Below, piece by piece: positions 2,108 to 47,546 of a DNA stretch of 64,000 nt. The notes beneath the pieces were generated by a model that did not search any database, was not told where the DNA came from, and saw only the letters and a program-made list of their open reading frames with translations. The stretch lies in sequence record PQ433349.1, one strand, 5' to 3'. Both the position numbers and the translations under genes were made by a program. Source of the DNA: Escherichia phage vB_Ec-G1. Every line of letters begins with the position of its first letter. Positions within the stretch are counted from its first letter, which is position 1.

Positions 2108-3049
2108 TTAATAACCTCCTTCAAAAGGCTTTACTACATGTTGATTAGCTTTAAAACGTTCAACATAGTCGTTTTCGCCCATGTTTTCATATAGCTTAAT
2201 AACAACATAAAAGTTTTCCCAAGCATATTCCCTAAACCAACCACTAGTGATGGATGTGCAGACTTTAGATAAAGCCATTATAAAACTTTGCTTAGGGGTT
2301 GGACCTCCGATCTCTCCACCGAAAGGAATTTGTGAACGTTCCAAAGCCAAAACACACGCTTCTTCATAAACACCTAACAGGCGCACATGTTTTGGTTGAG
2401 CAAAAAACTTTTCTTTGCTGGTCATAACTTCACTTCCATCTTTCATATAAGATTTATATGCCGGAGCATCCATTACCGCGATTGCTTCATGGATAGAATC
2501 ATGATCATAAACATACGGAACCTCATCACCTTTAAAAAAGTCTTTACTTTTTACGTTTAAGTTCGGATGAGAGTAAGTGTATGTTTCTTTCTCACGCAAC
2601 TCATAAATACTCTTAAGATTTTCTGGGATCTTTGCGCCCAGTGACCGCATGAAATGAATATCTTTCATAGTTTTAAAGAAGTGAGGACTATCCTTTTTAA
2701 AACGATGACTCATTTTAAGAAGGTAGAGCACATCTAAAGGAGCAACAACATGTCCAGCGTAAGTTCGACGAACATCATCAGAATCTTCACAATAACTAAT
2801 CAAAGCTTCTGTGCTATCTCCTTGAGAAGCAATATCGTATTCCAAATGTGCACCAGCTATCATTTTGACATGGCCTTTGTTTCCTTTACGTTCTACAAGT
2901 TCAACAAACTCCTCTTGAGAGAACATTTTTGATAATTCTTCCCACTCTTGTTCTGTACACAGGTAATCTAAATCTACACAAGGGCGATACAAGTCTTTTC
3001 CCATGTCCATAGCATGAATTTGCAATGCACGGCTACCAATTAACACCAT
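2108..3049 (-). CDS. hypothetical protein; possible Pol-beta-superfamily nucleotidyltransferase
   Basis: 313-aa ORF, GAGGAG SD; N-terminal GS...DLD pattern weakly resembling nucleotidyltransferase signature. Confidence 0.5.
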   Translation of the reverse strand: MVLIGSRALQIHAMDMGKDLYRPCVDLDYLCTEQEWEELSKMFSQEEFVELVERKGNKGHVKMIAGAHLEYDIASQGDSTEALISYCEDSDDVRRTYAGHVVAPLDVLYLLKMSHRFKKDSPHFFKTMKDIHFMRSLGAKIPENLKSIYELREKETYTYSHPNLNVKSKDFFKGDEVPYVYDHDSIHEAIAVMDAPAYKSYMKDGSEVMTSKEKFFAQPKHVRLLGVYEEACVLALERSQIPFGGEIGGPTPKQSFIMALSKVCTSITSGWFREYAWENFYVVIKLYENMGENDYVERFKANQHVVKPFEGGY

Positions 3050-3421: not shown

Positions 3422-3682
3422 TTAACAGCTACTACTGTGCCAAACGCCTTGAGAATTAACGACGAAACCATCATCACCTTCACCATAACAAGAAGAGGAT
3501 TGCCAATCTTCAAAACAGATTGCGTTATCTTCTAAACTAAGACCAAAACCAGCATCTTCAGCTTCTTTTGTAAGTTCGTCCACTAAAGCCATAATAGCTT
3601 GGGCTTTTTCAGTTAATTCTTCAACATTACGATCACTCATTAGTATTTCTCCTCCGGTTGGAAAACTGAACGACAAGCCCAC
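3422..3682 (-). CDS. small acidic protein, W-x-SSS-C tail family member (motif present twice)
   Basis: Ends ...WQSSSC...GVWHSSSC; alternative start at 3640 possible. Confidence 0.5.
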   Translation of the reverse strand: MGLSFSFPTGGEILMSDRNVEELTEKAQAIMALVDELTKEAEDAGFGLSLEDNAICFEDWQSSSCYGEGDDGFVVNSQGVWHSSSC

Positions 3683-3954
3683 ATACTAGCTTCTTTTAAA
3701 TGTTTAATAGCACAACGGATTTGATCAATACGCTCGTATGCAACATCTAATTCTTTTTCTGTGCCGTCAAAAGACCCATGATATGCTTCACAATACTCTT
3801 CCTCTAAAGCTTTGAAGATTAAACCTAAACGCTCTTCTGCATCTTTAATAGCGTTAACCTTGCCAATCTTATCGTCAGTATGCGCCTTATAACCTTTGAT
3901 ATCTTCGATTCCCACTTTACCTCCTATTAACAACTTAAAGAAGATGGATGCCAA
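3640..3954 (-). CDS. hypothetical protein (104 aa)
   Basis: Minus ORF in tandem small-gene array. Confidence 0.45.
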   Translation of the reverse strand: MASIFFKLLIGGKVGIEDIKGYKAHTDDKIGKVNAIKDAEERLGLIFKALEEEYCEAYHGSFDGTEKELDVAYERIDQIRCAIKHLKEASMWACRSVFQPEEKY

Positions 3955-4124
3955 TTTGTTCCAGTATTCTCATTTTCATCTTCTGGATCATAATAGCCAC
4001 CCATCCCATATTCAGGGGAGAAACGGAAACCTTTACCAGTCTCATCTGCTAACTGCTCTGCTTCCGCTAAAGCCTCATAAGCTGCTTTTACGGCTTCTTC
4101 TACTGTTTTAAACTTGGTCGTCAT
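3927..4124 (-). CDS. small acidic protein, W-x-SSS-C tail family member
   Basis: 65-aa ORF ending ...NWHPSSLSC. Confidence 0.45.
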   Translation of the reverse strand: MTTKFKTVEEAVKAAYEALAEAEQLADETGKGFRFSPEYGMGGYYDPEDENENTGTNWHPSSLSC

Positions 4125-4398
4125 AAAATTTCTCCTCTCCTAAAGACATGTTGACATGAAATGCACGATATGTAAATTCGTTGTCCGTTGTGTTTGAATA
4201 AAACTCAAATTGAACAACACCGTCTTGAGAAGACAGATACATGCCAATTTGAACTGTTCCTTCTGGTACCAGGTAAGCATACTCTGGACGTAGTGTTACA
4301 TTGTAAAAATAAAGTTCCCCAACACCCATTTCATCCCAAGCTTCCCAAGCGGTAACGAAGTTACTTTCAAAACTTGTTACTGATCTGAACTCTGCCAT
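4108..4398 (-). CDS. hypothetical protein (96 aa)
   Basis: Minus ORF, operon context. Confidence 0.45.
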   Translation of the reverse strand: MAEFRSVTSFESNFVTAWEAWDEMGVGELYFYNVTLRPEYAYLVPEGTVQIGMYLSSQDGVVQFEFYSNTTDNEFTYRAFHVNMSLGEEKFYDDQV

Positions 4399-4889
4399 AA
4401 AACCTCCTCAATCTTGTAGTTTGACTCCATCTCCAACACATTTCCACGAACGTCTCTCCGAAGAAAGGCATAAGCTTTATTAGGTATTGTAGACTCATAT
4501 TTAACCATATCTGGCACAGCAAAAGATACTACTACTCCTGCTGGGCTTCTGTCAAGAGCCTTATTAATATTTCTAAGGATATCGTTAGCCAAGATTTCTG
4601 CCAATTCTCCAAGAACGGTTTCGGTTATATCTTTATATCCCATTAAGTATTTGTTGATATCTTTCATCTCTGTATTGTTCAGAGTATAATCCAAAGGATA
4701 GAAATTCAAAGCGGAGTCACTTTTATGTGTCCACATGAAATGCACCCGATCCGAGCAGAATCGTAACCCTCTTTGAAGAATATCTTCTACAACAGGCAGA
4801 ATTTCTTTTGTCACATCATTAACCATGTTGTAATCTAAGATTTCTGCCAAGTTTGTTCTTTGTTCACCACGTTTACGTTTAGGAATCAC
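4377..4889 (-). CDS. hypothetical protein (170 aa)
   Basis: Minus ORF, operon context. Confidence 0.5.
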   Translation of the reverse strand: MIPKRKRGEQRTNLAEILDYNMVNDVTKEILPVVEDILQRGLRFCSDRVHFMWTHKSDSALNFYPLDYTLNNTEMKDINKYLMGYKDITETVLGELAEILANDILRNINKALDRSPAGVVVSFAVPDMVKYESTIPNKAYAFLRRDVRGNVLEMESNYKIEEVLWQSSDQ

Positions 4890-5460
4890 TTGTTATTGCC
4901 CTCATTACCAAAGGTCGTAGAAAATCGTAAATCTCTTGTTTTGTTTTCCCACGAATGTTTAAACAAGGAACATTATTGGCTTTAGCTATCTTCCAAGCCG
5001 TAGCTGTTCCACCTTTTGCATCTCCATGTTTATCAGTATTAGCACAAGCCAACAAGAAACATGATGGAGCAGGATTCTCCAAATCTCTACCTAACACTTG
5101 ATGCACATTACGTTGGTGCAATTTTCTAGCACCCTGCTTAAGCTTTTCATAGGCTGGGTGAACATCTTTGATCCATTGCACAGAGATAGCATAGTTCATT
5201 GTATCTGGTTTTGCAAGAACAATAACATCCCCTGGAATCTGATTACCTTTGAAATTTTCCCAAGGAACATAAATCTCCTTGTTAGTAGGATTTTCAGACT
5301 CTTGGACACCTGTTTCAAAAGCAGAATCACTACCCTCTGCCTTCCCAGACCTTAATTTAAACCCAAGGTTTGAAAGCCATTTCCCTATGCCTACCATCAA
5401 AGCCCACTCTTCTTCGGATATGTCTCTACTTCCAACTCCCGTATAGAACAGTTCTACCAT
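4879..5460 (-). CDS. DprA/Smf-like (SLOG) Rossmann-fold nucleotide-binding protein
   Basis: YTGVGSRDI...SGKAEGSDSAFE pattern typical of DprA/LOG-like Rossmann domain; start refined to ATG 5460 (GAGGTGA SD). Confidence 0.5.
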   Translation of the reverse strand: MVELFYTGVGSRDISEEEWALMVGIGKWLSNLGFKLRSGKAEGSDSAFETGVQESENPTNKEIYVPWENFKGNQIPGDVIVLAKPDTMNYAISVQWIKDVHPAYEKLKQGARKLHQRNVHQVLGRDLENPAPSCFLLACANTDKHGDAKGGTATAWKIAKANNVPCLNIRGKTKQEIYDFLRPLVMRAITSDS

Positions 5461-5467
5461 AATCACC

Positions 5468-5776
5468 TCAACAAGTAATTTCAAAAGGTGTATACGGTTC
5501 CGTATTTCTCATGATCCAAGGACTGCTAGGATTGCTCGGATCATAAGGACCAAAAGGTTTTATGGTCGGTTGTGTTTCTTTCTTCTGAATCTCTTCAAAA
5601 ATACGACGAAGTTCAGAATATTCTTGATCCACCATAAGATTCGGTGCATCTGATTCTACAGCTTGCAGGTTATCTTCCTTAAGAACAATCTCACGAACAA
5701 GATTAACATCTTCTGTTTCTAAGATAACTTCTTTACGGATATTACCTACACTTTGAATAATTGTAATCTTATACAT
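5468..5776 (-). CDS. hypothetical protein (102 aa)
   Basis: Minus ORF. Confidence 0.45.
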   Translation of the reverse strand: MYKITIIQSVGNIRKEVILETEDVNLVREIVLKEDNLQAVESDAPNLMVDQEYSELRRIFEEIQKKETQPTIKPFGPYDPSNPSSPWIMRNTEPYTPFEITC

Positions 5777-6519
5777 TAATCCTCCTCAAGAGTTGAATAA
5801 AATTGAAGACCACCGTCCATATCGAAATAAGCAAATGTTAAGTTATTATTGAACACAGATCCAGTATCCATATAAACACGATTCGCATTGATAATAGGTG
5901 TTTTTACATAAGAGTGTCCATGAAACACATAATCCACACCCATCACAACAGGAAGTTTCATTCCCTCTTTAGCACAGTCTACCATATCTCTGTCCCACAT
6001 AAGTGCTTCAGCAAAACGGTTTTCCTGTGTTTTTGTCATCTTCGAAATGTATTCTGGAATATCTGTTACAGGGAGATATTCCAAAGAAGATGGATACCCA
6101 CCATGAATAAACGCAAGTTTCATGCCTCTGTAGTTAACAATGAGAACAACAGGTAAATCTTCTGTCATCATTGCTAAGGCTGTAGCTCCTTCTTCACCAC
6201 ATTCTTCAAAGACCGTATATCCTCCATTTTGATACCAACACTCGTAGTAGCTACGATCTCCTTCCAGCATACCTTTAATCATCATGTCTTCATGATTGCC
6301 ACGAATAGCGTAGCGATTGTGTTTACGAGTAAATTCTAAAACACAACGAAAGTTTTGCTTTCCACGGTCAGTAAGATCTCCTAGAGATACAACCACATCT
6401 GTATCTCGGATACCTAACTTTGCCTTTCCTTTTTCATACAAATTATAACAACCGTGTAGATCTCCAATTATAAAAAGATCTTGATCGCTTTTAACAGTAA
6501 TTTCTCTGTGTATGATCAC
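5776..6519 (-). CDS. Ser/Thr protein phosphatase (calcineurin-like metallophosphoesterase, PP-lambda type)
   Basis: GDLHG, GDLTDRG, GNHE metallophosphatase motifs in order. Confidence 0.85.
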   Translation of the reverse strand: MIIHREITVKSDQDLFIIGDLHGCYNLYEKGKAKLGIRDTDVVVSLGDLTDRGKQNFRCVLEFTRKHNRYAIRGNHEDMMIKGMLEGDRSYYECWYQNGGYTVFEECGEEGATALAMMTEDLPVVLIVNYRGMKLAFIHGGYPSSLEYLPVTDIPEYISKMTKTQENRFAEALMWDRDMVDCAKEGMKLPVVMGVDYVFHGHSYVKTPIINANRVYMDTGSVFNNNLTFAYFDMDGGLQFYSTLEED

Positions 6520-6845
6520 TTATCCTCCTCAAAATCTAAGAAAATAAAAATATTCACCTTTCCTTCAATCTCTTGTTCTAAAACAAGATCGGCAAATTCT
6601 GCATAAGCTTTCTCTTCAACTTTTTCAATATGTTCTGCGGCATCTTTAAAAGGCGTATCCCCATCCACCTTTACTAATAAGAAAAGAGATCGCATTTCGA
6701 CGTTTTTACTGTTACGAGGAAGGAAATCTACAGCTTCAACAATTCTCCAACCCAAATAGCCAGGGGTTTTATGAATCTCCCCTAAATACTTTTCTAAGAT
6801 TTTACGACCCTCGTCGATAAGGGCTTGTTCTGTAGTAATTTCCAT
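6516..6845 (-). CDS. hypothetical protein (109 aa)
   Basis: Minus ORF, start overlaps upstream stop. Confidence 0.5.
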   Translation of the reverse strand: MEITTEQALIDEGRKILEKYLGEIHKTPGYLGWRIVEAVDFLPRNSKNVEMRSLFLLVKVDGDTPFKDAAEHIEKVEEKAYAEFADLVLEQEIEGKVNIFIFLDFEEDK

Positions 6846-9063: not shown

Positions 9064-9108
9064 TATTAATCTCCTATGTTTAAGAAATGCCCCCGAAGGG
9101 GCAGTTTG

Positions 9109-11795: not shown

Positions 11796-12056
11796 TTACT
11801 CCGCAATTTGAGCCATGAGATCACGCAGTTCGGTAAAACCGCCTACGTATGTTACCTCCCCGTTCACTTCAGACAGAATTTGTGGAAATGTGCGTGGAGG
11901 AACTCCGGTAAGATCAACAACTGTTTTAGTCATTGATTCTAAATCATAGTCTTGGTCAAGACTTAAATATTCAAACTGTTTATTGCGCATAGTCAATAGT
12001 TGTTTTGACATTTCACAAAATTGACAGTTAGGTTTACCAAAAATTACAAATTCCAT
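11796..12056 (-). CDS. glutaredoxin/NrdC-like redoxin
   Basis: CQFC active-site CxxC near N-terminus, GGF near C-terminus; adjacent to RNR genes. Confidence 0.75.
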   Translation of the reverse strand: MEFVIFGKPNCQFCEMSKQLLTMRNKQFEYLSLDQDYDLESMTKTVVDLTGVPPRTFPQILSEVNGEVTYVGGFTELRDLMAQIAE

Positions 12057-12898
12057 TACCTCTCCTTATTAAGTAATACTGCTAAAGACTGTTCAATACC
12101 TTTATTTAAATCTGATTTTGTAAGATAGTGACTGGTTACTAGTTGTGACTTCACCGGACGTGCTGCTGGAGCATTATAGGTTGAAGCTGATACCGCCGAT
12201 ATCTTAACAGGTTCTGGCATCTGTGTCAAGATCTTTTCCGCAAACTCCGCCCAAGAAATAAGATGGCTTCCTGCAAAATGGTAAGTCTTAACAGACCTTG
12301 ACCAACCTGTTTTTAATACTTCAAAAATAGCTTCTGCTAAATCTGGAGCATATGTTGGACAAGAGAACTGATCAGCAACAATAATAAAATCACGTTGTCC
12401 ATCATTATAGCGAGACAACATGGTTTTTAGAAAGTTATTTCCAAATTCGCTATATACCGAGGCTGTTCGAATAATATATGCATTTGGGTTAACTCCTCGC
12501 ACCATTTTTTCACCAAGTTCTTTCGTATACCCATAATTGTTTATTGGGTTAGGTGTAGTATCTTCAAAAATAGGATGAGAATAATTAAAAATATAGTCTG
12601 TGGAAATATGCACAAAATCAATTTTAAGTTTGCTGCACAGTGCCGCAATATTTGCAGGGCCATAAGCATTAACAGCCAAAGCAGTAGCAAAATCTTGTTC
12701 GGCTTTATCTACAGCCGTATAAGCGGCGCAATTAATAACACCATCTACATAATCTTCAATAATAGCGTTTCGCACAGCTTCAAAATTTGTAATATCTACA
12801 CGTTCTTTAGGATAAATTAAAGATACATTTGCAGGGGCAACTTTACGTAAAGCTTGTCCCAGTTGTCCATTACCACCCAATACCAAATATGTTAGCAT
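12056..12898 (-). CDS. rmlD: dTDP-4-dehydrorhamnose reductase
   Basis: STDYIF, YGYTKELGEK, RTASVYS, NF..TML, DQFSCPT motifs matching RfbD/RmlD. Confidence 0.85.
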   Translation of the reverse strand: MLTYLVLGGNGQLGQALRKVAPANVSLIYPKERVDITNFEAVRNAIIEDYVDGVINCAAYTAVDKAEQDFATALAVNAYGPANIAALCSKLKIDFVHISTDYIFNYSHPIFEDTTPNPINNYGYTKELGEKMVRGVNPNAYIIRTASVYSEFGNNFLKTMLSRYNDGQRDFIIVADQFSCPTYAPDLAEAIFEVLKTGWSRSVKTYHFAGSHLISWAEFAEKILTQMPEPVKISAVSASTYNAPAARPVKSQLVTSHYLTKSDLNKGIEQSLAVLLNKER

Positions 12899-13458
12899 AC
12901 ACCCTCGCTACGTAGCTGTTGAAAAGACTTAGCCATTGCATCTTTTGTTGATAAGATAGGTTTAAAATCTTCGTCAAAAATCATATCGAAGCCCCAATCA
13001 ATCCCTATATCAGGATCATCCCAACGTAAACTTTGTTCGCTGGAAGGGTCGTATGGAGTTGTGCATTTGTATTCGAAGATAGCATCCATACTCAACACTA
13101 TAAAACCATGTGCCAAACCAGGTGGAAGCCAGAACTGTGTATGGTGTCGTGCACGAAGAACAACACCGTCCCAAGCACCGTAAGTAGGACTATCTTTACG
13201 TAGGTCTACAGCGAAATCCAATACTTCCCCACTTACACAACGAACAAGCTTACCTTGCGGATTATTTGTTTGAAAGTGCATTCCTCGCAAAACACCGAAG
13301 TTTGATTTAGACATGTTATCTTGAACGAAAGTTTGTCTACCAATGATATCTTCGTATTTTTGTTCATTATATGTTTCTAAAAAGAAACCACGATCATCTT
13401 TATAAACGTCTGGTTTGATAATTACCGCACCTTCAATTTTTGTTTTTTCTACTTTCAT
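12892..13458 (-). CDS. rmlC: dTDP-4-dehydrorhamnose 3,5-epimerase
   Basis: [44 protein letters not shown] motifs; ATGA overlap with rmlA stop. Confidence 0.85.
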
Positions 13459-14333
13459 TTTCTCTCCGCTAATTTGAGCAGGTATTGCCCGTACTCTGTT
13501 TTCTTCAGTGAGTTTCCATGATAGACCAAAGTCTCTAAAGAAATCCACCCTTTTTTGAAAGCAATTTCTTCCAGGCACGCAATCTTCAATCCTTGACAGT
13601 TCTCAATAGTCTGCACGAATTGACCAGCTTCCATCAGACTGGCGTGTGTTCCTGTGTCAAGCCAAGTAAATCCTCGTCCGAGAACTTCTACTTGTAACTT
13701 CCTGTCTTCGAGGTAGCTGCGATTGATATCGGTGATCTCCAGTTCTCCACGCGCGGAAGGGGTTACTTCTAATGCACGTTGAATAACAGAGTTATCATAG
13801 AAATACAAACCTGTGACAGCATAATCTGATTTAGGATTTTCAGGTTTCTCTTCAATAGAAATAGCTTGATGATTACTCCCAAATTCAACCACACCGAATC
13901 GTTCAGGATCTTTCACCAAATACCCGAAGATACAAGCTCCGCCACAAACATCTACCATCTCACTGGCGTTAATCAGTAGTTTACCAAAGCTTTGTCCGAA
14001 GAATAGGTTGTCACCTAAAATAAGAGCAACAGAGTCTTCTCCGATAAAATCTTTACCGATGATGAAAGCGTCCGCAAGACCTCGTGGCTCGGATTGGATT
14101 GCATAAGTGAGTTTTATCCCAAACATAGACCCATCTCCGAGAAGATACTCAAAGTCTTCCTGATCGCCTGGTGTGGTGATGATTAAGATATCCTTAATGT
14201 CAGCCAACATCAATACCGATAAAGGGTAGTAGATCATGGGTTTGTCATACACAGGGAGCAATTGCTTGCTCACACTGCGTGTTACCGGATGAAGGCGGGT
14301 TCCACTTCCTCCCGCCAAAATAATACCTTTCAT
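13455..14333 (-). CDS. rmlA: glucose-1-phosphate thymidylyltransferase
   Basis: [40 protein letters not shown] pattern; start at ATG 14333 with AAGGAGG SD. Confidence 0.9.
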
Positions 14334-14341
14334 AGCCCTCC

Positions 14342-15334
14342 TTAAATCTTCCCACTCCACCATTGAGGGTTGTTTAAGTACCATTCAATCGTTGAGTAGA
14401 GATCTTGTTCAAATGTAGAGTTTGCACTCCAACCCAGTTCAGACTCTATCTTAGAAGGATTGATTTCATAACGCAAGTCATGTCCTTTACGATCTTCAAC
14501 AAAAGTTATCAAGTTGGAAGAAGGGTAGGTTCCTGCTTCTGGATGTACAGCATCCATGTAGTCACAAACCATATAGATGATCTCCATATTGGTTTTGGGA
14601 TTACGTGTTCCCACATTATACGTTTGACCTGGTTCTCCACCTGTTGCCACTTGAAGAATAGCTCGCGCATGATCCTCAACAAAAAGCCAGTCTCGCACCT
14701 GATCGCCTTTACCATACACCGGAATCTCTTTATTCGTCAAGATACTTGTGATGATTTTTGGGATCAGCTTTTCTGGATGTTGATAAGGTCCAAAGTTATT
14801 GGAGCAGTTGGTTATCACAACAGGTAAACCGTAGGTACGGTACCAAGCTTTCACAAGATGGTCAGATGCTGCCTTAGACGCACTGTACGGGCTTGAAGGG
14901 GCATAAGCTGTCTCTTCGGTAAAGGGAACGCCAGAGTCTGCCATATCGCCGTACACTTCGTCTGTGGAGACGTGTACGAACATCTTCAGTTTATTTTTTG
15001 GGAGGAGCCTTGCAGCTTCCAATAAATTGTATGTGCCAATAATATTGGAGTCGATGAAAACTCGTGGATTCTTGATAGAATTATCCACATGACTCTCTGC
15101 CGCTAAGTGAATGATGAAATCGGGATTGCACTCTACTACTAAACTTTTGACCTGGGTTTCGTTTGCCAAATCTGTTATGCTTAGTTTAACGTGAGTGATA
15201 TCGCCTACATTCTCAATATCTGCTGCATAGCCCATCTTATCAACGACAAAAACTTCGTTATTGGGATCTTGACAAAGAGAGCGCACCACGGCACTCCCAA
15301 TAAAACCAAGACCACCTGTTACCAGATAGCGCAT
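14342..15334 (-). CDS. rmlB: dTDP-glucose 4,6-dehydratase
   Basis: [10 protein letters not shown] Rossmann motif, YSASKAASD catalytic Yxxx[18 protein letters not shown]. Confidence 0.9.
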
Positions 15335-15343
15335 CAGTTCTCC

Positions 15344-15670
15344 TTACCAGACATGTTGAGAAATAATAGTTTCCGTTTTAATGTTATATTTTTCAAGTAG
15401 CTTTGCATAGGCTTCTTTTGCATTCTCATTCAATTGCTCAAGATCTACAGCTATGCTTCCTTCTCCGCCTTCTAAATCAAGGCCATATATGCAATAAGAC
15501 TCATCCGCATCGTAGAAAGGAGAGATGCGGCTTAAGTCAAGACCTTCTTGTAAGAACCAGTTAAAATCTCCGTCAAATTCTTCTTCAATTCTAGGATCTT
15601 CTCCTACAGCCTCTTCCCACTTATTAAAAGGTGCACCCTGTAACATACGCCATTCGATATCAATACCCAT
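15344..15670 (-). CDS. hypothetical acidic protein (108 aa)
   Basis: Minus ORF. Confidence 0.5.
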   Translation of the reverse strand: MGIDIEWRMLQGAPFNKWEEAVGEDPRIEEEFDGDFNWFLQEGLDLSRISPFYDADESYCIYGLDLEGGEGSIAVDLEQLNENAKEAYAKLLEKYNIKTETIISQHVW

Positions 15671-17598: not shown

Positions 17599-17620
17599 TA
17601 AAAAAGGGGCCGAAGCCCCT
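17599..17620 (-). terminator. rho-independent terminator (minus strand, UUCG tetraloop)
   Basis: On minus strand GGGGC-ttcg-GCCCC followed by TTTTTT, after homing endonuclease gene. Confidence 0.7.
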
Positions 17621-17626
17621 GTATTG

Positions 17627-18283
17627 TTAGCCTCGGAATACTGTTTTTGTTTCTGCCAGATTGTAATAGAAATCCGACTTGTTTACAAGTGTTTTGTAAA
17701 CATCCTTACAAAAATGATCTTCCTGTTTGTAACGTTCCGCTGTTTCCCTGATTGACTTAGCTTTATCCTTTAGCCAAGCGAAGTGTGCCTCTTCCTCTGT
17801 AGCGAAGTAGCCTAAATGCTTACCTTTACTCCCAGAAGCTTTGGCATAAATCTTACCATCTTTCCTAACATGTGCTCCTAGTAAGTATTTTCTTTCATAC
17901 CTCTTAGCATAACTTAAGAGTGTATTTATGTAAGGAGGAACAAACCTACAATATTCAGGACAATAAACAGTATTTCCTTCAAGAACAAGATCTTTATCTA
18001 AAACAAAGCCTTCCACATTGTGTTCTTGATACCAGTTATCAAAGTTTGAAAAGGTGAACCAAGCATCACACACAGTAACATCTTTATAACCTGGTCTAAT
18101 GTTTTCCATACGATATGCACGATTAAACATGCCTTTCCAAGCTGCATAGGAAGGGTCTATGAATGTATTAACCCTTTTCCCATTGATAACACCACCTTCC
18201 CACAATCTACGTTCAACATCCACAATCAAGGGGATTTCTCCCCTCTCTGTGAGAACGGTAACTTTACGTTTACCCTTCTTCAT
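17627..18283 (-). CDS. HNH-family homing endonuclease with AP2-like DNA-binding domain
   Basis: AP2-like GYFATEEEAHFAW segment; basic N-terminus; free-standing between nrdA and nrdB. Confidence 0.7.
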   Translation of the reverse strand: MKKGKRKVTVLTERGEIPLIVDVERRLWEGGVINGKRVNTFIDPSYAAWKGMFNRAYRMENIRPGYKDVTVCDAWFTFSNFDNWYQEHNVEGFVLDKDLVLEGNTVYCPEYCRFVPPYINTLLSYAKRYERKYLLGAHVRKDGKIYAKASGSKGKHLGYFATEEEAHFAWLKDKAKSIRETAERYKQEDHFCKDVYKTLVNKSDFYYNLAETKTVFRG

Positions 18284-21314: not shown

Positions 21315-22313
21315 TCACCATTTAGTATGATTTGTTAAAAGTTGACGATGTTGAATCCAGCCTTTGAAATTGCCAGACCAAAACTTACCATTACGATCTA
21401 CATGGGTAATACCTGGTTCCCAAGAGTTAAAATCCCAAGGAGCATTGATAAACAAATCTTCAAAACAGTTCTCTCCATATTGTTCGCATGTTTCTTGCAT
21501 TGGAGTGGCTTGATGTTCAAACGGAGAAGCATGAACCTTGCGCCCAGTCAGCAAGCGACCATAGATATCTAAAGCTTTATCTTTAGTTGCATTTAAACGA
21601 CGATAGCTAACCTGTGCACAACACGACGCTGAAATAGCTTTGGCTTCTTCCAAAGTAAGCACAACGACTTCTCCAGATTCATCTTGAACGTAGTATCCAC
21701 CAAAAACAAAATGATCGTCACCTTCTGTGCCAATAGTATCATAGAAATGGTCTACATAAGGTGTGTGCCATTGCCCTGGTTTCAGCACTTCTGGTGTAGA
21801 TCCTTCATACTCTTTGTGCATCTCTTTAGCCAAAGCTTCGATAGTAGGATCGGCTTCTTTGTCATCACGTAGCCACCAGAAATTTTCATATTCTGTTGCT
21901 GTCAGAACTGTTTTAATTCGTTGGAAAGGTTCCAGAAGACGGTTTGCAACTTGTTTGTGGTACCCTGCCAAAGAGAATTCTTCTGCAAAACGGGCTGCAC
22001 TAAGCGCGGCAAGATCCCACCACTCTTGAGCAGTATAACCTGCATCAATAAAAGCATCATGGTCAACACCTTTATCCTGCATACCAGGTTGGTTAGCCCC
22101 AAAACGATAAGGACGAGCAGGTTGATTTCGCACCATTTCAATCAGTGTTTTAACAGGTATAGCACGGCTAGAAGCAGCATTACGACTGAACAGGCGGTGA
22201 GTCATCAATTCTGAATGAATAATACGTGGATATTCTAGTTCAAAAGTTACAATCTCTTTTCCGTCTTCAGTGATGGAATGCGCAATAATACTAGCCGAAA
22301 TCTGTTTTGTCAT
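21315..22313 (-). CDS. ThyX-like protein (flavin-dependent thymidylate synthase family), divergent
   Basis: N-terminal THRLFSRNAASSR matches ThyX RHR-x7-S-x-R motif with first Arg replaced; C-terminal HASPFEH and WIQHR resemble ThyX His/RHR motifs. Confidence 0.6.
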   Translation of the reverse strand: MTKQISASIIAHSITEDGKEIVTFELEYPRIIHSELMTHRLFSRNAASSRAIPVKTLIEMVRNQPARPYRFGANQPGMQDKGVDHDAFIDAGYTAQEWWDLAALSAARFAEEFSLAGYHKQVANRLLEPFQRIKTVLTATEYENFWWLRDDKEADPTIEALAKEMHKEYEGSTPEVLKPGQWHTPYVDHFYDTIGTEGDDHFVFGGYYVQDESGEVVVLTLEEAKAISASCCAQVSYRRLNATKDKALDIYGRLLTGRKVHASPFEHQATPMQETCEQYGENCFEDLFINAPWDFNSWEPGITHVDRNGKFWSGNFKGWIQHRQLLTNHTKW

Positions 22314-22322
22314 TTTTTCTCC

Positions 22323-22931
22323 TTAGTTTTTAAAATTGTTCAAAGTGTTAAAAACATCCAAACATGTTAGCCACTGATCTTCTAAACCTGTGATCACAAC
22401 ATTTGGTTTTTTCTTTAGTTCTTCTAGATGGTTATCTTTATAAGGCGTATTAAAATATATTTTAACCACTTCATCTGGAAAATATAGTAGGTTATCAGCC
22501 CTGTCATCTATTGCTATATCACAAGGCAATAAGTATTTTTCTTTCGTAGCAAAAAAGCCGTTACCAGATCCTTTGCTAAAATCAATCGTGTTCAATGTTC
22601 TTAAAACATGTTTATGTTTAGAACTCAAGTGACCACCTTTTGTCACACTTGCGATCAAAAGATTGCCACCTTTCCTTGAAACATACTTTAAGAAATCTGG
22701 CATACCTGGAACAAAACCCATTGTATCATAGAGATGAGGATTATCCAGAAATCCGTAAGGATCTATATTGAACTCCTCCCTGAAACCAGGAAAGTAGTTG
22801 GTAAGATCATAGTCTGCATTTTTTGTGAATGTGTCTATCTTAACACCAAGTCCACTAATCTTATTCAACCATTCTAACCAAGCAACATCTAATGGAGCCA
22901 CAACTAAATCCCAATCACATACTATCTGCAT
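22323..22931 (-). CDS. HAD-superfamily 5'(3')-deoxyribonucleotidase-like protein
   Basis: N-terminal CDWDLVVAP (DxDxV HAD motif I-like). Confidence 0.6.
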   Translation of the reverse strand: MQIVCDWDLVVAPLDVAWLEWLNKISGLGVKIDTFTKNADYDLTNYFPGFREEFNIDPYGFLDNPHLYDTMGFVPGMPDFLKYVSRKGGNLLIASVTKGGHLSSKHKHVLRTLNTIDFSKGSGNGFFATKEKYLLPCDIAIDDRADNLLYFPDEVVKIYFNTPYKDNHLEELKKKPNVVITGLEDQWLTCLDVFNTLNNFKN

Positions 22932-37238: not shown

Positions 37239-37313
37239 GGCCCTGTAGCTCAATGGGAGAGCTGTCGGCTCATAACCGATAGGTAGCTGGATCGAAACCA
37301 GCCAGGGCCACCA
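37239..37313 (+). tRNA. tRNA-Met (anticodon CAT; elongator or Ile2-type)
   Basis: Acceptor GGCCCTG/CAGGGCC, anticodon loop CTCATAA, T-arm, encoded CCA. Confidence 0.75.
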
Positions 37314-37315
37314 AC

Positions 37316-37390
37316 GTCTTTATGGTGTAATGGATAGCACAGGAGTCTTCTAAACTCTTAGTCAAGGTTCGATTCCTTGTAAAGACACCA
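37316..37390 (+). tRNA. tRNA-Arg (anticodon TCT)
   Basis: Acceptor GTCTTTA/TAAAGAC, anticodon loop CTTCTAA, T-loop TTCGATT, CCA. Confidence 0.8.
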
Positions 37391-37586
37391 GAACATTTTA
37401 ACATGAATTAGCTCAAGTGATTTGAACCCACTACTGATCATGGTGGCAGAGAATGAGGCAAGTATGTCAGACATTATAAACAAAGGCCACGGTTATATTA
37501 GAAGACATAAATGCTCGAAGAGCACCGTTCGTGGAGAACGGGGGTTGGTGGAGTCACCATTCATGGTAAAATGTTTTAAAAAACTA

Positions 37587-37615
37587 TTGACAACAAACAT
37601 TATTTTATGTTAGAT
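37587..37615 (+). promoter_or_regulatory. candidate sigma70-type promoter upstream of tRNA-Ser
   Basis: TTGACA, 17-nt spacer, TTAGAT. Confidence 0.4.
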
Positions 37616-37624
37616 TATAAATAT

Positions 37625-37715
37625 GGAAGGGCAAATCGACGTGGCGACGAAAACGGTCTTGAAAACCGCCGAGCTTGAAAGAGCCTTGGGAGTTCGACTC
37701 TCCCTCCTTCCGCCA
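37625..37715 (+). tRNA. tRNA-Ser (anticodon TGA), type II
   Basis: Acceptor GGAAGGG/TCCTTCC, anticodon loop CTTGAAA, long variable arm, CCA. Confidence 0.7.
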
Positions 37716-37740
37716 GATTGGTAGATTGGTAGATTGGTGA
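37716..37740 (+). repeat. tandem direct repeat (gattggta x3) overlapping tRNA 5' end
   Basis: gattggtagattggtagattggtg read directly. Confidence 0.6.
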
Positions 37741-37813
37741 AATGGTAGCCACAACAGTTTGCTAAACTGTAGTCGGAAACGGCGTGTAGGTTCGAGTCCT
37801 ACATCTACCGCCA
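37728..37813 (+). tRNA. tRNA-Ser (anticodon GCT), type II
   Basis: Acceptor GGTAGAT/ATCTACC, anticodon loop TTGCTAA, long variable arm, CCA. Confidence 0.7.
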
Positions 37814-37943
37814 AGTTCTTTTTAATATAGCTTACTTTAATAGAGTAAATTTTCGGCAGATGGCCCCCATCATCTTACCGATACCTCATAGTTAGTGGTG
37901 CGAACACTGGCTATTTTAAAAAGAATTTAAATATTAGTATTTA

Positions 37944-38031
37944 GGTGAGTTAATTCCGTAGGGGTAGCGGGGCAGACTGTAAATCTGTTATCATTGCGAT
38001 TCGGGTGGTTCGACTCCATCACTCACCACCA
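37944..38031 (+). tRNA. tRNA-Tyr (anticodon GTA), type II
   Basis: Acceptor GGTGAGT/ACTCACC, anticodon arm GCAGA-CTGTAAA-TCTGT as in bacterial tRNA-Tyr, discriminator A, CCA. Confidence 0.7.
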
Positions 38032-38037
38032 AATTAA

Positions 38038-38123
38038 GATGAGTTGGCTGAATGGTTTAAGCAGCGGACTGTTAATCCGTGTTCGAAAGAACAATATAGG
38101 TTCGAATCCTATACTCATCGCCA
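38038..38123 (+). tRNA. atypical tRNA with anticodon GTT (Asn) on a Tyr-like type II scaffold
   Basis: Acceptor GATGAGT/ACTCATC, anticodon loop CTGTTAA, extra GTTCGAAAGAAC hairpin before T-arm, discriminator G, CCA. Confidence 0.5.
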
Positions 38124-38130
38124 GAATTAT

Positions 38131-38207
38131 GGACTTGTAGAGTTAAGGTAAACCCCCAGTCGCCAATAGGCTTCTGGAATTGCAGGTATCGAATCCTGCC
38201 GAGTCCC
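38131..38207 (+). ncRNA. tRNA-like element without canonical anticodon arm (possible pseudo-tRNA)
   Basis: Acceptor-like GGACTTG/CGAGTCC and T-arm-like GCAGG-TATCGAAT-CCTGC, but no 5-7-5 anticodon arm with U33 could be folded. Confidence 0.3.
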
Positions 38208-38213
38208 AGCATT

Positions 38214-38288
38214 GCTCCTATAGTATAATGGCTATTACAACGGTTTTGTAATCCGTGGATCTCTGTTCGATTCAGTGTGGGAGCACCA
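38214..38288 (+). tRNA. tRNA-Thr (anticodon TGT)
   Basis: Acceptor GCTCCTA/TGGGAGC, anticodon loop TTTGTAA, T-loop TTCGATT, CCA. Confidence 0.7.
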
Positions 38289-38561
38289 ACACAACATTAA
38301 GAGCACTGTGATTGATCGTCGTATCCTGTGCACAAGGTCTGCTCGAAAGACAGTGTTCTTAGTATTGTGTTGATCACAAAAAGAGTCACCCGAAACTTGA
38401 CCGGAGTAGGGTTGGATGGGGCAAAATGAGAAGCGGCTCTCCCATCGACAGCAACGAAGAATAATATTTGACTTTGGTTTTGTATTATTTTAAGTTAGCT
38501 TACCGAACGTAGGGCTAGTCACCCAACGGGATACTCGTCACTGTCCCAATCAATAAAAGTC

Positions 38562-38591
38562 TTGACAACAAATAGTAAAATGTAGTATAGT
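38562..38591 (+). promoter_or_regulatory. sigma70-type promoter upstream of tRNA-Gly
   Basis: TTGACA, 18-nt spacer, TATAGT; tRNA starts about 12 nt downstream. Confidence 0.6.
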
Positions 38592-38602
38592 AAATATATA
38601 GG

Positions 38603-38676
38603 GCGTTCTTGGTGTAGCGGTAGCATTCCGTCCTTCCAAGTCGGCGGCACGAGTTCGATCCTCGTAGAACGCTCCA
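38603..38676 (+). tRNA. tRNA-Gly (anticodon TCC)
   Basis: Acceptor GCGTTCT/AGAACGC, anticodon loop CTTCCAA, T-arm ACGAG-TTCGATC-CTCGT, CCA. Confidence 0.7.
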
Positions 38677-38774
38677 AATTATTTAATAAAGGGTTGCCAG
38701 AAAACTTTCTCTTTTACTCATGGTTTTCTCCTTCTCTCACACTTCTTCTGGTTGCCCTTCATTAAATGATTTAT

Positions 38775-38850
38775 TGGTTTGTAGTGTAGTCCGGTAGCAC
38801 ACGACACTTTGACTGTCGTAGGTTTGGTTCAAATCCAGACAGACCAGCCA
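38775..38850 (+). tRNA. tRNA-Gln (anticodon TTG)
   Basis: U1:A72 acceptor TGGTTTG/CAGACCA, anticodon arm CGACA-CTTTGAC-TGTCG, CCA. Confidence 0.75.
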
Positions 38851-38855
38851 TATAA

Positions 38856-38932
38856 CGGAGTTTAGCTCAGTTTGGTAGAGCATACGCTTTGGGAGCGTAG
38901 GGTCGCAGGTTCGAATCCTGCAATTCCGACCA
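38856..38932 (+). tRNA. tRNA-Pro (anticodon TGG)
   Basis: C1:G72 acceptor CGGAGTT/AATTCCG, anticodon arm TACGC-TTTGGGA-GCGTA, T-arm GCAGG-TTCGAAT-CCTGC, CCA. Confidence 0.8.
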
Positions 38933-38938
38933 ATTAAA

Positions 38939-39012
38939 TGTTTCGTAGTTCAATGGTAGAACCCACGACTGATAATCGTGAGACACAAGTTCGATTCTTG
39001 TCGAAACAACCA
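38939..39012 (+). tRNA. tRNA-Ile (anticodon GAT)
   Basis: Acceptor TGTTTCG/CGAAACA, anticodon arm CACGA-CTGATAA-TCGTG, T-loop TTCGATT, CCA. Confidence 0.75.
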
Positions 39013-39014
39013 GT

Positions 39015-39085
39015 TTCCCGTTAGACTTACAGGATAAGAGTTCCACAGCTTATTGTGATGCTGGTTCGAATCCAGCACGGGATAC
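39015..39085 (+). ncRNA. degenerate tRNA-like element (intact T-arm, no canonical anticodon arm)
   Basis: T-arm GCTGG-TTCGAAT-CCAGC and acceptor pairing TTCCCGT/ACGGGAT present; no loop with U33 and purine-37 found. Confidence 0.3.
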
Positions 39086-39090
39086 ATAAT

Positions 39091-39169
39091 AGCGGGATAG
39101 AGGAGTCTGGTCGTCCTCGCCAGTTTCATATGCTGGAGATCATCGGTTCAAATCCGATTCCCGCCTCCA
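39091..39169 (+). tRNA. tRNA-Met (anticodon CAT), second copy, A1xC72 mismatch
   Basis: Anticodon arm CCAGT-TTCATAT-GCTGG, T-arm ATCGG-TTCAAAT-CCGAT, CCA; first acceptor pair unpaired. Confidence 0.6.
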
Positions 39170-46544: not shown

Positions 46545-47546
46545 ATGCCAGCAGTAATTTTAGATCAGGTTGTAGATTTCAGCCCTATGATCGAACTTCA
46601 GGATTCCCCTGATACACTGATTGCCAGCCTGAATCTGTTCAGCGTTGACTATCATTCAACTACCGCTATTGAAATCGGTAAAGAAAAAGCTGAAGATGCG
46701 CTGATCTCCGCTCGTGAGCGTGGTGGTGAGCGTAACTTCCTGACCATGAAAAATCCAGAACTGAAAGCATTCCGTATTCCGTTCTTCCCTCTGGATAAAA
46801 ACATCAAAGCTCAAGATATTCAATCTTTCCGTAGCTTTGCGATGGCAGGAATCAATGACTCTCTGCGCACAGACGCTGAAGTTGTTAACCGCTATATGTC
46901 CCAGATTCTGCGTGACGTAGCAAAAACCAAAGAGAAAATCTTTGCAGAAGCAGTTATGGGTCGTGCCTATAACGGCGTAGGTGGTGCAGCTAACTCTGCA
47001 TACAACTGGTATACCGAGTGGAATGCTACCCAGAAATCTGTTGCTGTAGACTTTGCTTCTACCACTGTTTCTCCAGCAGCCACTATCGAGCAAGAAGCTC
47101 GTGCTTACATCATCGATACTAAACAAGATGGCTCTACCGCTACTCGTATCGTAGCTCTGTGTTCTCGTGAATTTTTCGCATCTCTGGTTAACTCTCCATT
47201 TGTTCGCCAGGCGTATCAGTATTTCCAGGGAACTCCTAACCTTCTGCGTGACCGCCTTAGCGGTAACATGGATGTTCAGGTGTTCGAATGGAACGGTGTA
47301 ACTTACATTGAAGATATCCACGGTAACATCCCTGCTGGTGAAGCATATGTTCTGCCTATGGGTATCGAAGGTATGTTCCAGGCGCACTACGCTCCTGCGG
47401 ATACTCCAGAACTGGCTAACACCCAGGCTCGTGAACTGTATACCTTCATGATCAGCCAGCACCGCACCATTCAGCTTCAGTCTGAATTCTCGCTGCTCGC
47501 AGTTAACACCCGTCCAGAACTGGTAGTTAAACTGACTACGGCTTAA
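46545..47546 (+). CDS. major capsid protein (lambda gpE-like family)
   Basis: 333 aa, strong SD, host-optimal codon usage, NTQAR segment shared with lambda gpE C-terminal region (from memory), strong terminator downstream. Confidence 0.7.
   Translation: MPAVILDQVVDFSPMIELQDSPDTLIASLNLFSVDYHSTTAIEIGKEKAEDALISARERGGERNFLTMKNPELKAFRIPFFPLDKNIKAQDIQSFRSFAMAGINDSLRTDAEVVNRYMSQILRDVAKTKEKIFAEAVMGRAYNGVGGAANSAYNWYTEWNATQKSVAVDFASTTVSPAATIEQEARAYIIDTKQDGSTATRIVALCSREFFASLVNSPFVRQAYQYFQGTPNLLRDRLSGNMDVQVFEWNGVTYIEDIHGNIPAGEAYVLPMGIEGMFQAHYAPADTPELANTQARELYTFMISQHRTIQLQSEFSLLAVNTRPELVVKLTTA

Follow-up and report, generated by a model that had tools for sequence, protein, structure and literature searches.

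A dTDP-L-rhamnose operon in a Phapecoctavirus genome and the glycosyltransferases that may use its product

What does a lytic coliphage do with a complete pathway for an activated sugar? The question is raised by a 64,000-nucleotide stretch of the genome of Escherichia phage vB_Ec-G1 (PQ433349.1), referred to here at its full length as the window, which carries the genes rmlB, rmlA, rmlC, and rmlD for the synthesis of dTDP-L-rhamnose. The original prediction, made by a model from this sequence alone, had placed four consecutive minus-strand rml genes at positions 12056 to 15334. It had further proposed that the phage itself uses the sugar that it makes, with a modified DNA base, a virion protein, or a host surface polysaccharide as the acceptor. 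We conclude from sequence comparisons that the four genes are a real, intact, and long-conserved dTDP-L-rhamnose operon. On balance, the operon appears to feed the donor to phage glycosyltransferases that act on an acceptor other than DNA, most likely a protein.

The operon and the hypothesis of DNA glycosylation are already in print, and as a discovery the locus is ordinary. Olsen et al. (2020) discussed the operon and proposed the rhamnosylation of hydroxymethylated nucleotides (PMC7552041). Maffei et al. (2021) reported that phi92-like phages encode a "putative dTDP glycosylation machinery" and noted exceptional susceptibility to restriction-modification in the Vequintavirinae and related phages despite the phi92-like glycosylation genes (PMC8594841), and the point about the operon and restriction susceptibility was repeated in a 2024 iScience paper (PMC10844046). 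Our literature search found no functional study of a phage rml operon or of Phapecoctavirus glycosyltransferases, and a search for rhamnose-modified phage DNA returned nothing relevant. The present analysis contributes a connection with a defined cassette of glycosyltransferase genes, naturally occurring rmlBA deletions, and the temperate-phage contexts of a glycosyltransferase pair.

The rml operon and its conserved core

The window comes from a Phapecoctavirus, a phAPEC8-type coliphage, and shares about 99% identity with phages TSP7_1 and ESCO13. A megablast search with the operon region matched 70 records. The region is 97 to 99% identical at the nucleotide level to that of more than 45 Phapecoctavirus phages in GenBank (phAPEC8, ESCO13, TSP7_1, and others), in all of which the four genes are annotated alike. 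Compared with the rml operons of phAPEC8, ESCO13, phi92-like phages, and other Stephanstirmvirinae, that of the window is a further member with no material difference.

Open reading frames (ORFs) were found at exactly the predicted positions (Table 1). The enzymes were identified by the curated equivalog cut-offs of NCBIfam, by Pfam, and by alignment to solved structures, and all four proteins matched the RmlA to RmlD families in the profile search. RmlB (TIGR01181, 429 bits against a cut-off of 365), RmlA (TIGR01207, 465 bits against 361), and RmlC (TIGR01221, 225 bits against 156) passed their cut-offs, and RmlD did so by a narrow margin (TIGR01214, 237 bits against 224); the Pfam assignments agreed with NCBIfam for all four. 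The claim of a complete pathway with the hallmarks of each enzyme was also borne out by the catalytic residues. RmlB aligned with Salmonella enterica RmlB (1g1a, E = 7e-111) with conservation of Thr133-Asp134-Glu135 and of Tyr167/Lys171 (YxxxK), and RmlA aligned with 4ho0 (E = 8e-125) and kept all of the GGSGTRL, LGDN, EKP, and WLDTGT motifs. In the alignment of RmlC with 1dzr (E = 4e-56), His63, Lys73, Tyr133, and Asp170 are conserved (1dzr numbering), including the His63/Asp170 dyad. The closest solved relatives of RmlD are the enzymes of Bacillus anthracis (3sc6) and Clostridium acetobutylicum (1vl0), with E values of about 1e-44, and both the catalytic Thr (STD) and the YxxxK motif (YGYTK) are conserved with respect to 3sc6. 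The match to S. enterica RmlD (E = 3e-29) is far weaker than that to these Firmicute enzymes. In contrast, the nearest relatives of RmlB are E. coli RffG and the S. enterica enzyme, and RmlC is nearest to its S. enterica counterpart.

The position of RmlD bears on the identity of the product, which might be a related 6-deoxyhexose, such as 6-deoxy-L-talose, if the fourth enzyme had the opposite C4 stereochemistry. RmlD only narrowly exceeds its cut-off, is closer to Firmicute than to enterobacterial RmlD, and is the most divergent of the four proteins, with 55 to 56% identity between phage genera. However, it passes the curated equivalog threshold and keeps the catalytic Thr and YxxxK, and all of its structure matches at E values of 1e-15 or below are deposited as dTDP-4-dehydrorhamnose reductase or dTDP-glucose oxidoreductase. 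We regard a product other than dTDP-L-rhamnose as a remote prospect.

The order rmlB-rmlA-rmlC-rmlD-grx (grx being the glutaredoxin gene) downstream of nrdB is common to Phapecoctavirus, Justusliebigvirus (phage alia), and Citrobacter phage Tr1. The region was also matched by megablast in phiWec phages, in which all four rml genes are annotated. Across these lineages the amino acid identity is 55 to 73%, with proportions of nonsynonymous and synonymous differences (pN and pS) of 0.21 to 0.31 and 0.64 to 0.83, respectively, which places synonymous sites at or near saturation. Where the ratio of nonsynonymous to synonymous substitution rates (dN/dS) could be estimated, it was 0.13 to 0.27, and the neighboring glutaredoxin gene gave similar values. 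Saturated synonymous sites together with low pN and dN/dS indicate that the Stephanstirmvirinae subfamily has carried the operon for a long time and that purifying selection acts on it.

The GC content at third codon positions (GC3) is 0.41 in rmlB and rmlA, 0.29 in rmlC, and 0.23 in rmlD. This split in codon composition and the presence of a Firmicute-like RmlD alongside Salmonella-like RmlB and RmlC hint at a mosaic origin. Recent capture from an E. coli-like host was considered and rejected, given the Firmicute-like RmlD, the low GC3 of rmlC and rmlD, and the synteny across genera with saturated synonymous sites.

Some Stephanstirmvirinae relatives have a shorter rmlCD form instead of the four genes. 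More than 20 of the 70 matching records, from Phapecoctavirus, align only to positions 1 to 1412 of the megablast query, which correspond to rmlD and rmlC. About a third of the Phapecoctavirus genomes lack exactly rmlB and rmlA (window positions 13455 to 15343) and keep rmlC and rmlD, and the latter two genes are present in every Stephanstirmvirinae match. Phage Mt1B1_P17, for example, is without rmlBA and retains the glycosyltransferases described below; ESCO5 is an example of the four-gene form. The absence of the two genes from ESCO37 was also reported by the authors of the ESCO collection (PMC10269720). In this phage an ORF of 108 amino acids lies directly upstream of rmlC. The junction consists of TAAGGAGA joined to GAAAATG (positions 6403 to 6420 of the ESCO37 stretch) and falls between the GGAGA ribosome-binding sites of rmlB and rmlC, so that the deletion leaves rmlC correctly spaced behind the upstream ORF. 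Because all outgroups carry four genes, the two-gene form is a derived deletion; the opposite case, in which rmlBA was inserted later, was rejected on the same grounds.

Enterobacterial hosts always make dTDP-4-keto-6-deoxyglucose for enterobacterial common antigen (ECA) by means of RffH and RffG, and from this intermediate the routes to dTDP-Fuc4NAc (for ECA) and to dTDP-rhamnose diverge. Since rmlBA is lost in the variants and the host supplies dTDP-4-keto-6-deoxyglucose, the rhamnose-specific RmlC/RmlD branch appears to be the indispensable phage part. In terms of gene content, the conserved core of the operon is rmlCD and not rmlBA.

The loss of rmlB and rmlA from about a third of the sequenced Phapecoctavirus genomes with viability kept would also fit a dispensable metabolic passenger, that is, a set of genes captured from a bacterium with no dedicated phage role. 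However, rmlC and rmlD occur in every Stephanstirmvirinae match, and synteny and purifying selection extend across genera with saturated synonymous sites. The GC3 of rmlD and rmlC (0.23 to 0.29) lies below the overall GC content of the window (39%), with no sign of a recent E. coli-like capture. A passenger role is hardly credible.

The original prediction had described the genes as translationally coupled. This holds for rmlA/rmlC (overlap ATGA), rmlC/rmlD (ATGCTAA, 7 nt), and rmlD/grx (TAATG) but not in the same form for rmlB/rmlA, which do not overlap: the TAA stop codon of rmlB is followed by AAGGAGGG and then by the ATG of rmlA, 8 nt past the stop. The mechanical ORF of rmlA has 309 amino acids and begins at 14384, whereas the start supported by a ribosome-binding site is the ATG at 14333, giving 292 amino acids. 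Upstream of rmlB, the 108-amino-acid ORF ends in TAA, followed by the ribosome-binding site AAGGAGAA and the ATG of rmlB at 15334. The glutaredoxin gene is the conserved downstream neighbor of rmlD, lies outside the sugar pathway, and is syntenic in alia and Tr1.

As had been noted from the sequence, the context is one of nucleotide metabolism, with nrdB, nrdA, and the genes for glutaredoxin, a ThyX-like protein, and an NT5C-like nucleotidase flanking the operon. A consensus scan found no strong minus-strand terminator-like hairpin between 17605 and 9103-9088 other than the bounding ones. Because the only strong nearby hairpins on this strand are those at 17620-17605 and 9103-9088, the operon is probably part of one long predicted unit that comprises nrdB, small ORFs, rmlBACD, grx, a lysozyme-like gene, phoH, and an hslV-like gene.

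Table 1. Coordinates of the rml genes and associated features in the window
Feature	Position	Strand	Basis or remark
rmlB, dTDP-glucose 4,6-dehydratase, 330 aa	14342..15334	-	TIGR01181 equivalog
rmlA, glucose-1-phosphate thymidylyltransferase, 292 aa	13455..14333	-	TIGR01207 equivalog; start is the ATG supported by a ribosome-binding site
rmlC, dTDP-4-dehydrorhamnose 3,5-epimerase, 188 aa	12892..13458	-	TIGR01221 equivalog
rmlD, dTDP-4-dehydrorhamnose reductase, 280 aa	12056..12898	-	TIGR01214 equivalog, narrow pass
Glutaredoxin/thioredoxin-fold gene, coupled to rmlD	11796..12056	-	Junction TAATG; annotated as glutaredoxin or thioredoxin in relatives
Terminator-like hairpin preceding the nrdB block, probable 5' limit of the long unit	17605..17620	-	Consensus scan only
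Terminator-like hairpin, probable 3' boundary of the long unit	9088..9103	-	Consensus scan only

A glycosyltransferase cassette outside the window

No glycosyltransferase had been recognized in the window, and none was found there either in the annotation of the equivalent region of phage EF1-1 or in Pfam scans of the ORFs without known function (167 to 313 amino acids). This absence is due to the 64-kb extent of the window and not to the content of the genome. The complete genome of EF1-1, a close and nearly identical relative, has four adjoining glycosyltransferase genes, gp189 to gp192 (positions 12301 to 15445 of stretch L004), beside the primase/helicase and about 75 kb from the rml operon. 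All close relatives carry these genes. The BASEL phage EmilieFrey (Bas61) has the same four glycosyltransferase genes (positions 3428 to 6604 of stretch L010) and carries both gene sets. The products of gp189 and gp190 are paralogues (41% identity) with weak GT-B matches in Pfam. The gp191 product is a GT-A protein of 227 amino acids with an invariant FDDD motif, and the gp192 product (187 amino acids, PHROG 14179) is annotated as a glycosyltransferase.

The distributions of gp191 and RmlC, compared as match counts per identity band, agree over the subfamily Stephanstirmvirinae. Proteins similar to gp191 were found in 64 records with at least 95% identity and in 62 with 60 to 90% identity, plus Tr1; for RmlC, the counts were 64 records with at least 95% identity and 65 with 60 to 80%. 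Phage TSP7_1, which is 99% identical to the window, is present in both sets. With near-equal numbers of Escherichia matches for the two proteins (106 for gp191 and 105 for RmlC), both gene sets seem to be missing from rV5-type Vequintavirus.

Tellurite-resistance-like genes (TerC, TelA, TerD, and a vWA-TerF-like gene) adjoin the cassette in relatives (L014, 1 to 5404; L004, 16768 to 27254). The same set also holds a putative phosphoribosyltransferase and hydrolases.

Homologues of the GT-B proteins are few, and nearly all are on phage contigs. In temperate phages, the GT-A/GT-B pair, confirmed as homologous, was found in three settings. In a Serratia prophage, a gp192 homologue accompanies it, and the lysis cassette and terS are on either side; in a P22-like contig it is flanked by terL and the portal gene, and in a lambdoid contig it separates the antiterminator region from the lysis genes (the temperate-phage cassettes are at L011, 5589 to 7670; L012, 9558 to 12019; and L013, 9394 to 10969). 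All three placements are co-oriented and within late operons, and these phages are without nucleotide-modification genes. The pair is a mobile cassette of late regions in temperate enterobacterial phages. On a 135-kb phage contig (L015, 2667 to 5319), the pair adjoins the primase/helicase and DNA polymerase A genes, and immediately upstream of it is a gene for a short-chain dehydrogenase/reductase resembling NDP-hexose 4,6-dehydratase (171 bits against TIGR01181, which is below the cut-off). That an enzyme of the 6-deoxyhexose-pathway type is physically linked to the pair supports a relationship between donor and transferase.

Structures were predicted for gp189 and gp191. The gp189 model had a predicted local distance difference test (pLDDT) score of 93.7, and a fold search of the PDB returned GT4-type GT-B enzymes. 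The matches included PglA, GlgM, BshA, MshA, PimA, and TarM as well as the protein O-glycosyltransferases Gtf3, GtfC, and SdgB; T4 AGT and BGT were absent from the top 50. The gp191 model (pLDDT 89.5) is a minimal GT-A and was searched against the PDB and BFVD. Its best solved match was A197 of the archaeal virus STIV; collagen galactosyltransferases, TarP from a prophage, and GalNAc-T12 came after it. In the search of viral models, TET-associated glycosyltransferases (TAGT; ranks 28, 35, and 46) were outranked by generic GT2 and GT25 proteins. Sequence searches of the PDB with gp191 and gp192 gave no usable matches.

Candidate acceptors of the sugar

In the explanation that we propose, the four enzymes would convert glucose-1-phosphate and dTTP to dTDP-glucose, then to dTDP-4-keto-6-deoxy-D-glucose, dTDP-4-keto-L-rhamnose, and finally dTDP-L-rhamnose. 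Expressed in a single, tightly coupled chain together with the nucleotide-metabolism genes of the early/middle class, the rml genes would give the phage a host-independent supply of a 6-deoxyhexose donor. This donor would be used by the conserved cassette elsewhere in the genome, which in EF1-1 (gp189 to gp192) would provide two GT4-like GT-B enzymes, a minimal GT-A enzyme with a DDD motif, and a small protein. RmlC and RmlD would be the essential phage contribution, and rmlB and rmlA could be lost as hosts make dTDP-4-keto-6-deoxyglucose. The acceptor would be a protein made in lytic growth, with a virion protein as the leading candidate, and not DNA. The earlier proposal that the sugar serves the phage itself gains from the glycosyltransferases of relatives, which track rmlC; of its three suggested acceptors, DNA fared worst.

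The published alternative is DNA hypermodification, in which rhamnose would be transferred to a hydroxymethylated pyrimidine or another modified base, as in the glucosylated hydroxymethylcytosine (hmC) of T4, and would protect against host nucleases (PMC7552041). The operon does lie among nucleotide-metabolism genes, the cassette lies beside primase/helicase and DNA polymerase genes, and gp191 is weakly similar to the TAGT and to the T-even beta-glucosyl-HMC alpha-glucosyltransferase family. However, no ThyA-type dCMP/dUMP hydroxymethylase, TET/JBP enzyme, or hydroxymethyldeoxyuridine kinase is annotated in the complete genome of EF1-1, a negative that comes from PHROG- and structure-based annotation of a relative and not from an exhaustive profile scan. 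The sole relative of thymidylate synthase is the divergent ThyX-like protein, which flanks the operon (332 amino acids, 21315 to 22313, minus strand). It gives a partial match to Pfam Thy1 (E = 4.5e-8), retains the THRxxSxxxxSxR motif, has about 150 additional C-terminal residues, and found no usable sequence match in the PDB; the gene for the NT5C-like nucleotidase (E = 1.7e-5) follows at 22323 to 22931. Furthermore, phi92-like phages with both clusters, such as Bas61, are exceptionally susceptible to type I, II, and III restriction-modification (PMC8594841), and the same GT-A/GT-B pair is found in temperate lambdoid, P22-like, and HK97-like phages that are without nucleotide-modification genes. 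The TAGT match of gp191 is under the Pfam threshold, and gp189 is GT4-like and not AGT- or BGT-like. Of the three acceptors put forward, DNA has the least support and is probably not the one used; we consider hypermodification improbable.

Remodeling of the host envelope could take two forms. A lipid-linked glycan (ECA, lipopolysaccharide core, or O-antigen intermediates) could be rhamnosylated, or RmlC and RmlD could divert dTDP-4-keto-6-deoxyglucose from ECA synthesis; in either case, infected cells and debris would carry an altered form, or less, of the primary receptor that the phage itself uses. ECA is the primary receptor of these phages and the lipopolysaccharide outer core the secondary receptor (PMC8594841; PMC12753057). 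The conserved core of the operon is exactly the RmlC/RmlD step at the ECA/rhamnose branch point, dTDP-4-keto-6-deoxyglucose. The GT-B fold relatives PglA, PimA, and TarM act on lipid-linked or wall glycans, and TarP, a relative of gp191, is a prophage enzyme that modifies wall teichoic acid. Set against this is the timing: the genes are arranged for expression in the lytic cycle and are co-oriented in late operons of both lytic and temperate carriers, which would leave little time for a new surface glycan. In addition, the immediate surroundings of the cassette showed neither a membrane-embedded flippase nor a partner of the Gtr type, and pure diversion leaves unexplained why most genomes keep rmlA and rmlB, which raise the flux to the shared precursor. 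Envelope remodeling seems unlikely.

Protein glycosylation is the best fit because of the late-operon placement of the pair and some of the structural relatives. The acceptor may tentatively be taken as a protein, with a virion protein as the leading candidate, and a sizable share of the probability falls to acceptors other than protein, host glycan, and DNA. A more specific proposal, which is possible but doubtful, is that virion proteins carry a rhamnose-containing glycan built by the GT-A/GT-B cassette from phage-made dTDP-rhamnose and that the pair of the temperate phages acts likewise with host sugars. The capsid (46545 to 47546) and tail-sheath (50149 to 51522) proteins of the window match the recently deposited phi92 virion structures PDB 21uy, 21vm, and 21wl.

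Several points weigh against a protein acceptor supplied by this operon. On inspection of the sequences, the C termini of the capsid, decoration, and tail-tube proteins are not Ser/Thr-rich, and the portal protein alone has a moderately Ser/Thr-rich C terminus (9 of 20 residues). The folds of gp189 and gp191 are generic; the substrates of their relatives range over proteins, lipid-linked glycans, teichoic acid, and small molecules, and the folds do not fix the acceptor. The similarity of gp191 to enzymes that glycosylate DNA bases is weak but present (Pfam TAGT, 19.4 bits with a cut-off of 27.5, below threshold; phrog_842, E = 1.4e-5). GT4-like enzymes usually retain the anomeric configuration, whereas most known rhamnosyltransferases invert it; some rhamnosyltransferases, WsaF among them, nevertheless belong to family GT4. 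A distance of about 75 kb separates the rml genes from the glycosyltransferase cluster in Stephanstirmvirinae. The agreement between the distributions of gp191 and RmlC is largely within one phage lineage and is therefore not independent evidence. The narrow margin by which RmlD passes its cut-off also belongs here. The sequence comparisons establish the identity of the enzymes, their intact active sites, the coupling of the genes, purifying selection, the shared distribution with the cassette, and the rmlBA-less variants; from these we infer the use of dTDP-rhamnose by the cassette and the identity of the acceptor.

Neighboring genes and comparison with known systems

Three further features of the window lie outside the operon. 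An ORF of 218 amino acids (17627 to 18283, minus strand) between nrdA and nrdB is absent from that place in ESCO13 and ESCO37. At the corresponding position, EF1-1 carries a gene annotated as an HNH endonuclease; the ORF is probably a mobile homing endonuclease. Ten tRNA genes (Met, two copies; Arg; Ser; Asn; Thr; Gly; Gln; Pro; and Ile) at 37239 to 39169 on the plus strand lie where the coding strand and the GC skew switch, between the early/middle and structural blocks. In the early block, a protein of 313 amino acids (2108 to 3049, minus strand) consists of two domains of unknown function, DUF7277 (E = 1e-13) and DUF7275 (E = 7.5e-76).

The hypothesis as narrowed here is that the acceptor is probably not DNA, that the partner enzymes would be a defined four-gene cassette, and that the conserved core is rmlCD, and the natural rmlBA-less phages are ready-made comparison strains. 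Phapecoctavirus and Justusliebigvirus are popular candidates for therapy and biocontrol because of their broad host range. If their virions were glycosylated, immune recognition, stability, and host range could be affected; if DNA or the host envelope were modified instead, this would bear on the evasion of phage defense and on superinfection. To our knowledge, no virion-glycosylation system has previously been described for phages of Gram-negative bacteria. A virion glycan, if real, would be the first such system and would matter for the antibody recognition of therapeutic phages.

Compared with the bacterial rmlBDAC/rfb operons (the O-antigen clusters of E. coli and Salmonella, and RffG/RffH of ECA synthesis), the phage operon has the same four enzyme families and the same catalytic residues. 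It differs in being carried by a lytic myovirus, in its order B-A-C-D, and in its fusion into a nucleotide-metabolism unit with glutaredoxin. Its RmlD resembles Firmicute and not enterobacterial enzymes, and unlike the bacterial clusters it has no adjoining O-antigen glycosyltransferase, flippase, or polymerase genes.

The T-even glucosylation systems (hmC with alpha- and beta-glucosyltransferases) and the arabinosyl-hmC of RB69 share with the system considered here the location of sugar-transfer genes near the replication genes of a lytic phage, and gp191 has a faint similarity to the T-even beta-glucosyl-HMC alpha-glucosyltransferase family. In contrast to the phage pathway described here, T-even phages use host UDP-glucose, and they require a dCMP hydroxymethylase, for which EF1-1 has no annotated gene. 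T-even DNA is resistant to restriction, whereas phi92-like phages are hypersensitive (PMC8594841), and the fold search with gp189 did not place T4 AGT or BGT among its best matches.

For mycobacteriophages, virion glycosylation is connected with Che8 gp108 to gp110 and Corndog gp38 (Freeman et al., 2023, as cited in PMC11256854 and PMC12363180), and Che8 gp110 is reported to be essential for capsid glycosylation (PMC12363180). The gp108 gene lies two genes upstream of gp110. In both the Che8-type system and the putative coliphage one, clustered phage glycosyltransferases lie outside the structural module. The gp191 protein aligns with the GT-A domain of Che8 gp108 (24% identity, E = 1e-4), a weak similarity that is generic to GT-A domains, and genes similar to gp191 occur in about 350 mycobacteriophage records. 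Unlike the coliphage, Che8 has no sugar-nucleotide pathway in the region examined. The glycosylated capsid and tail-tube proteins of mycobacteriophages reportedly bear a Ser/Thr-rich C-terminal extension. The coliphage capsid and tube proteins are without such tails.

Giant viruses have sugar-nucleotide pathways and glycosyltransferases for the glycans of their fibrils and capsids, as with the UDP-L-rhamnose of Mimivirus. These pathways differ from that of the coliphage in being UDP based and of the eukaryote type, and the viruses infect hosts of a different domain. By description, the two are alike in that a 6-deoxyhexose donor pathway and glycosyltransferases are both encoded by the virus.

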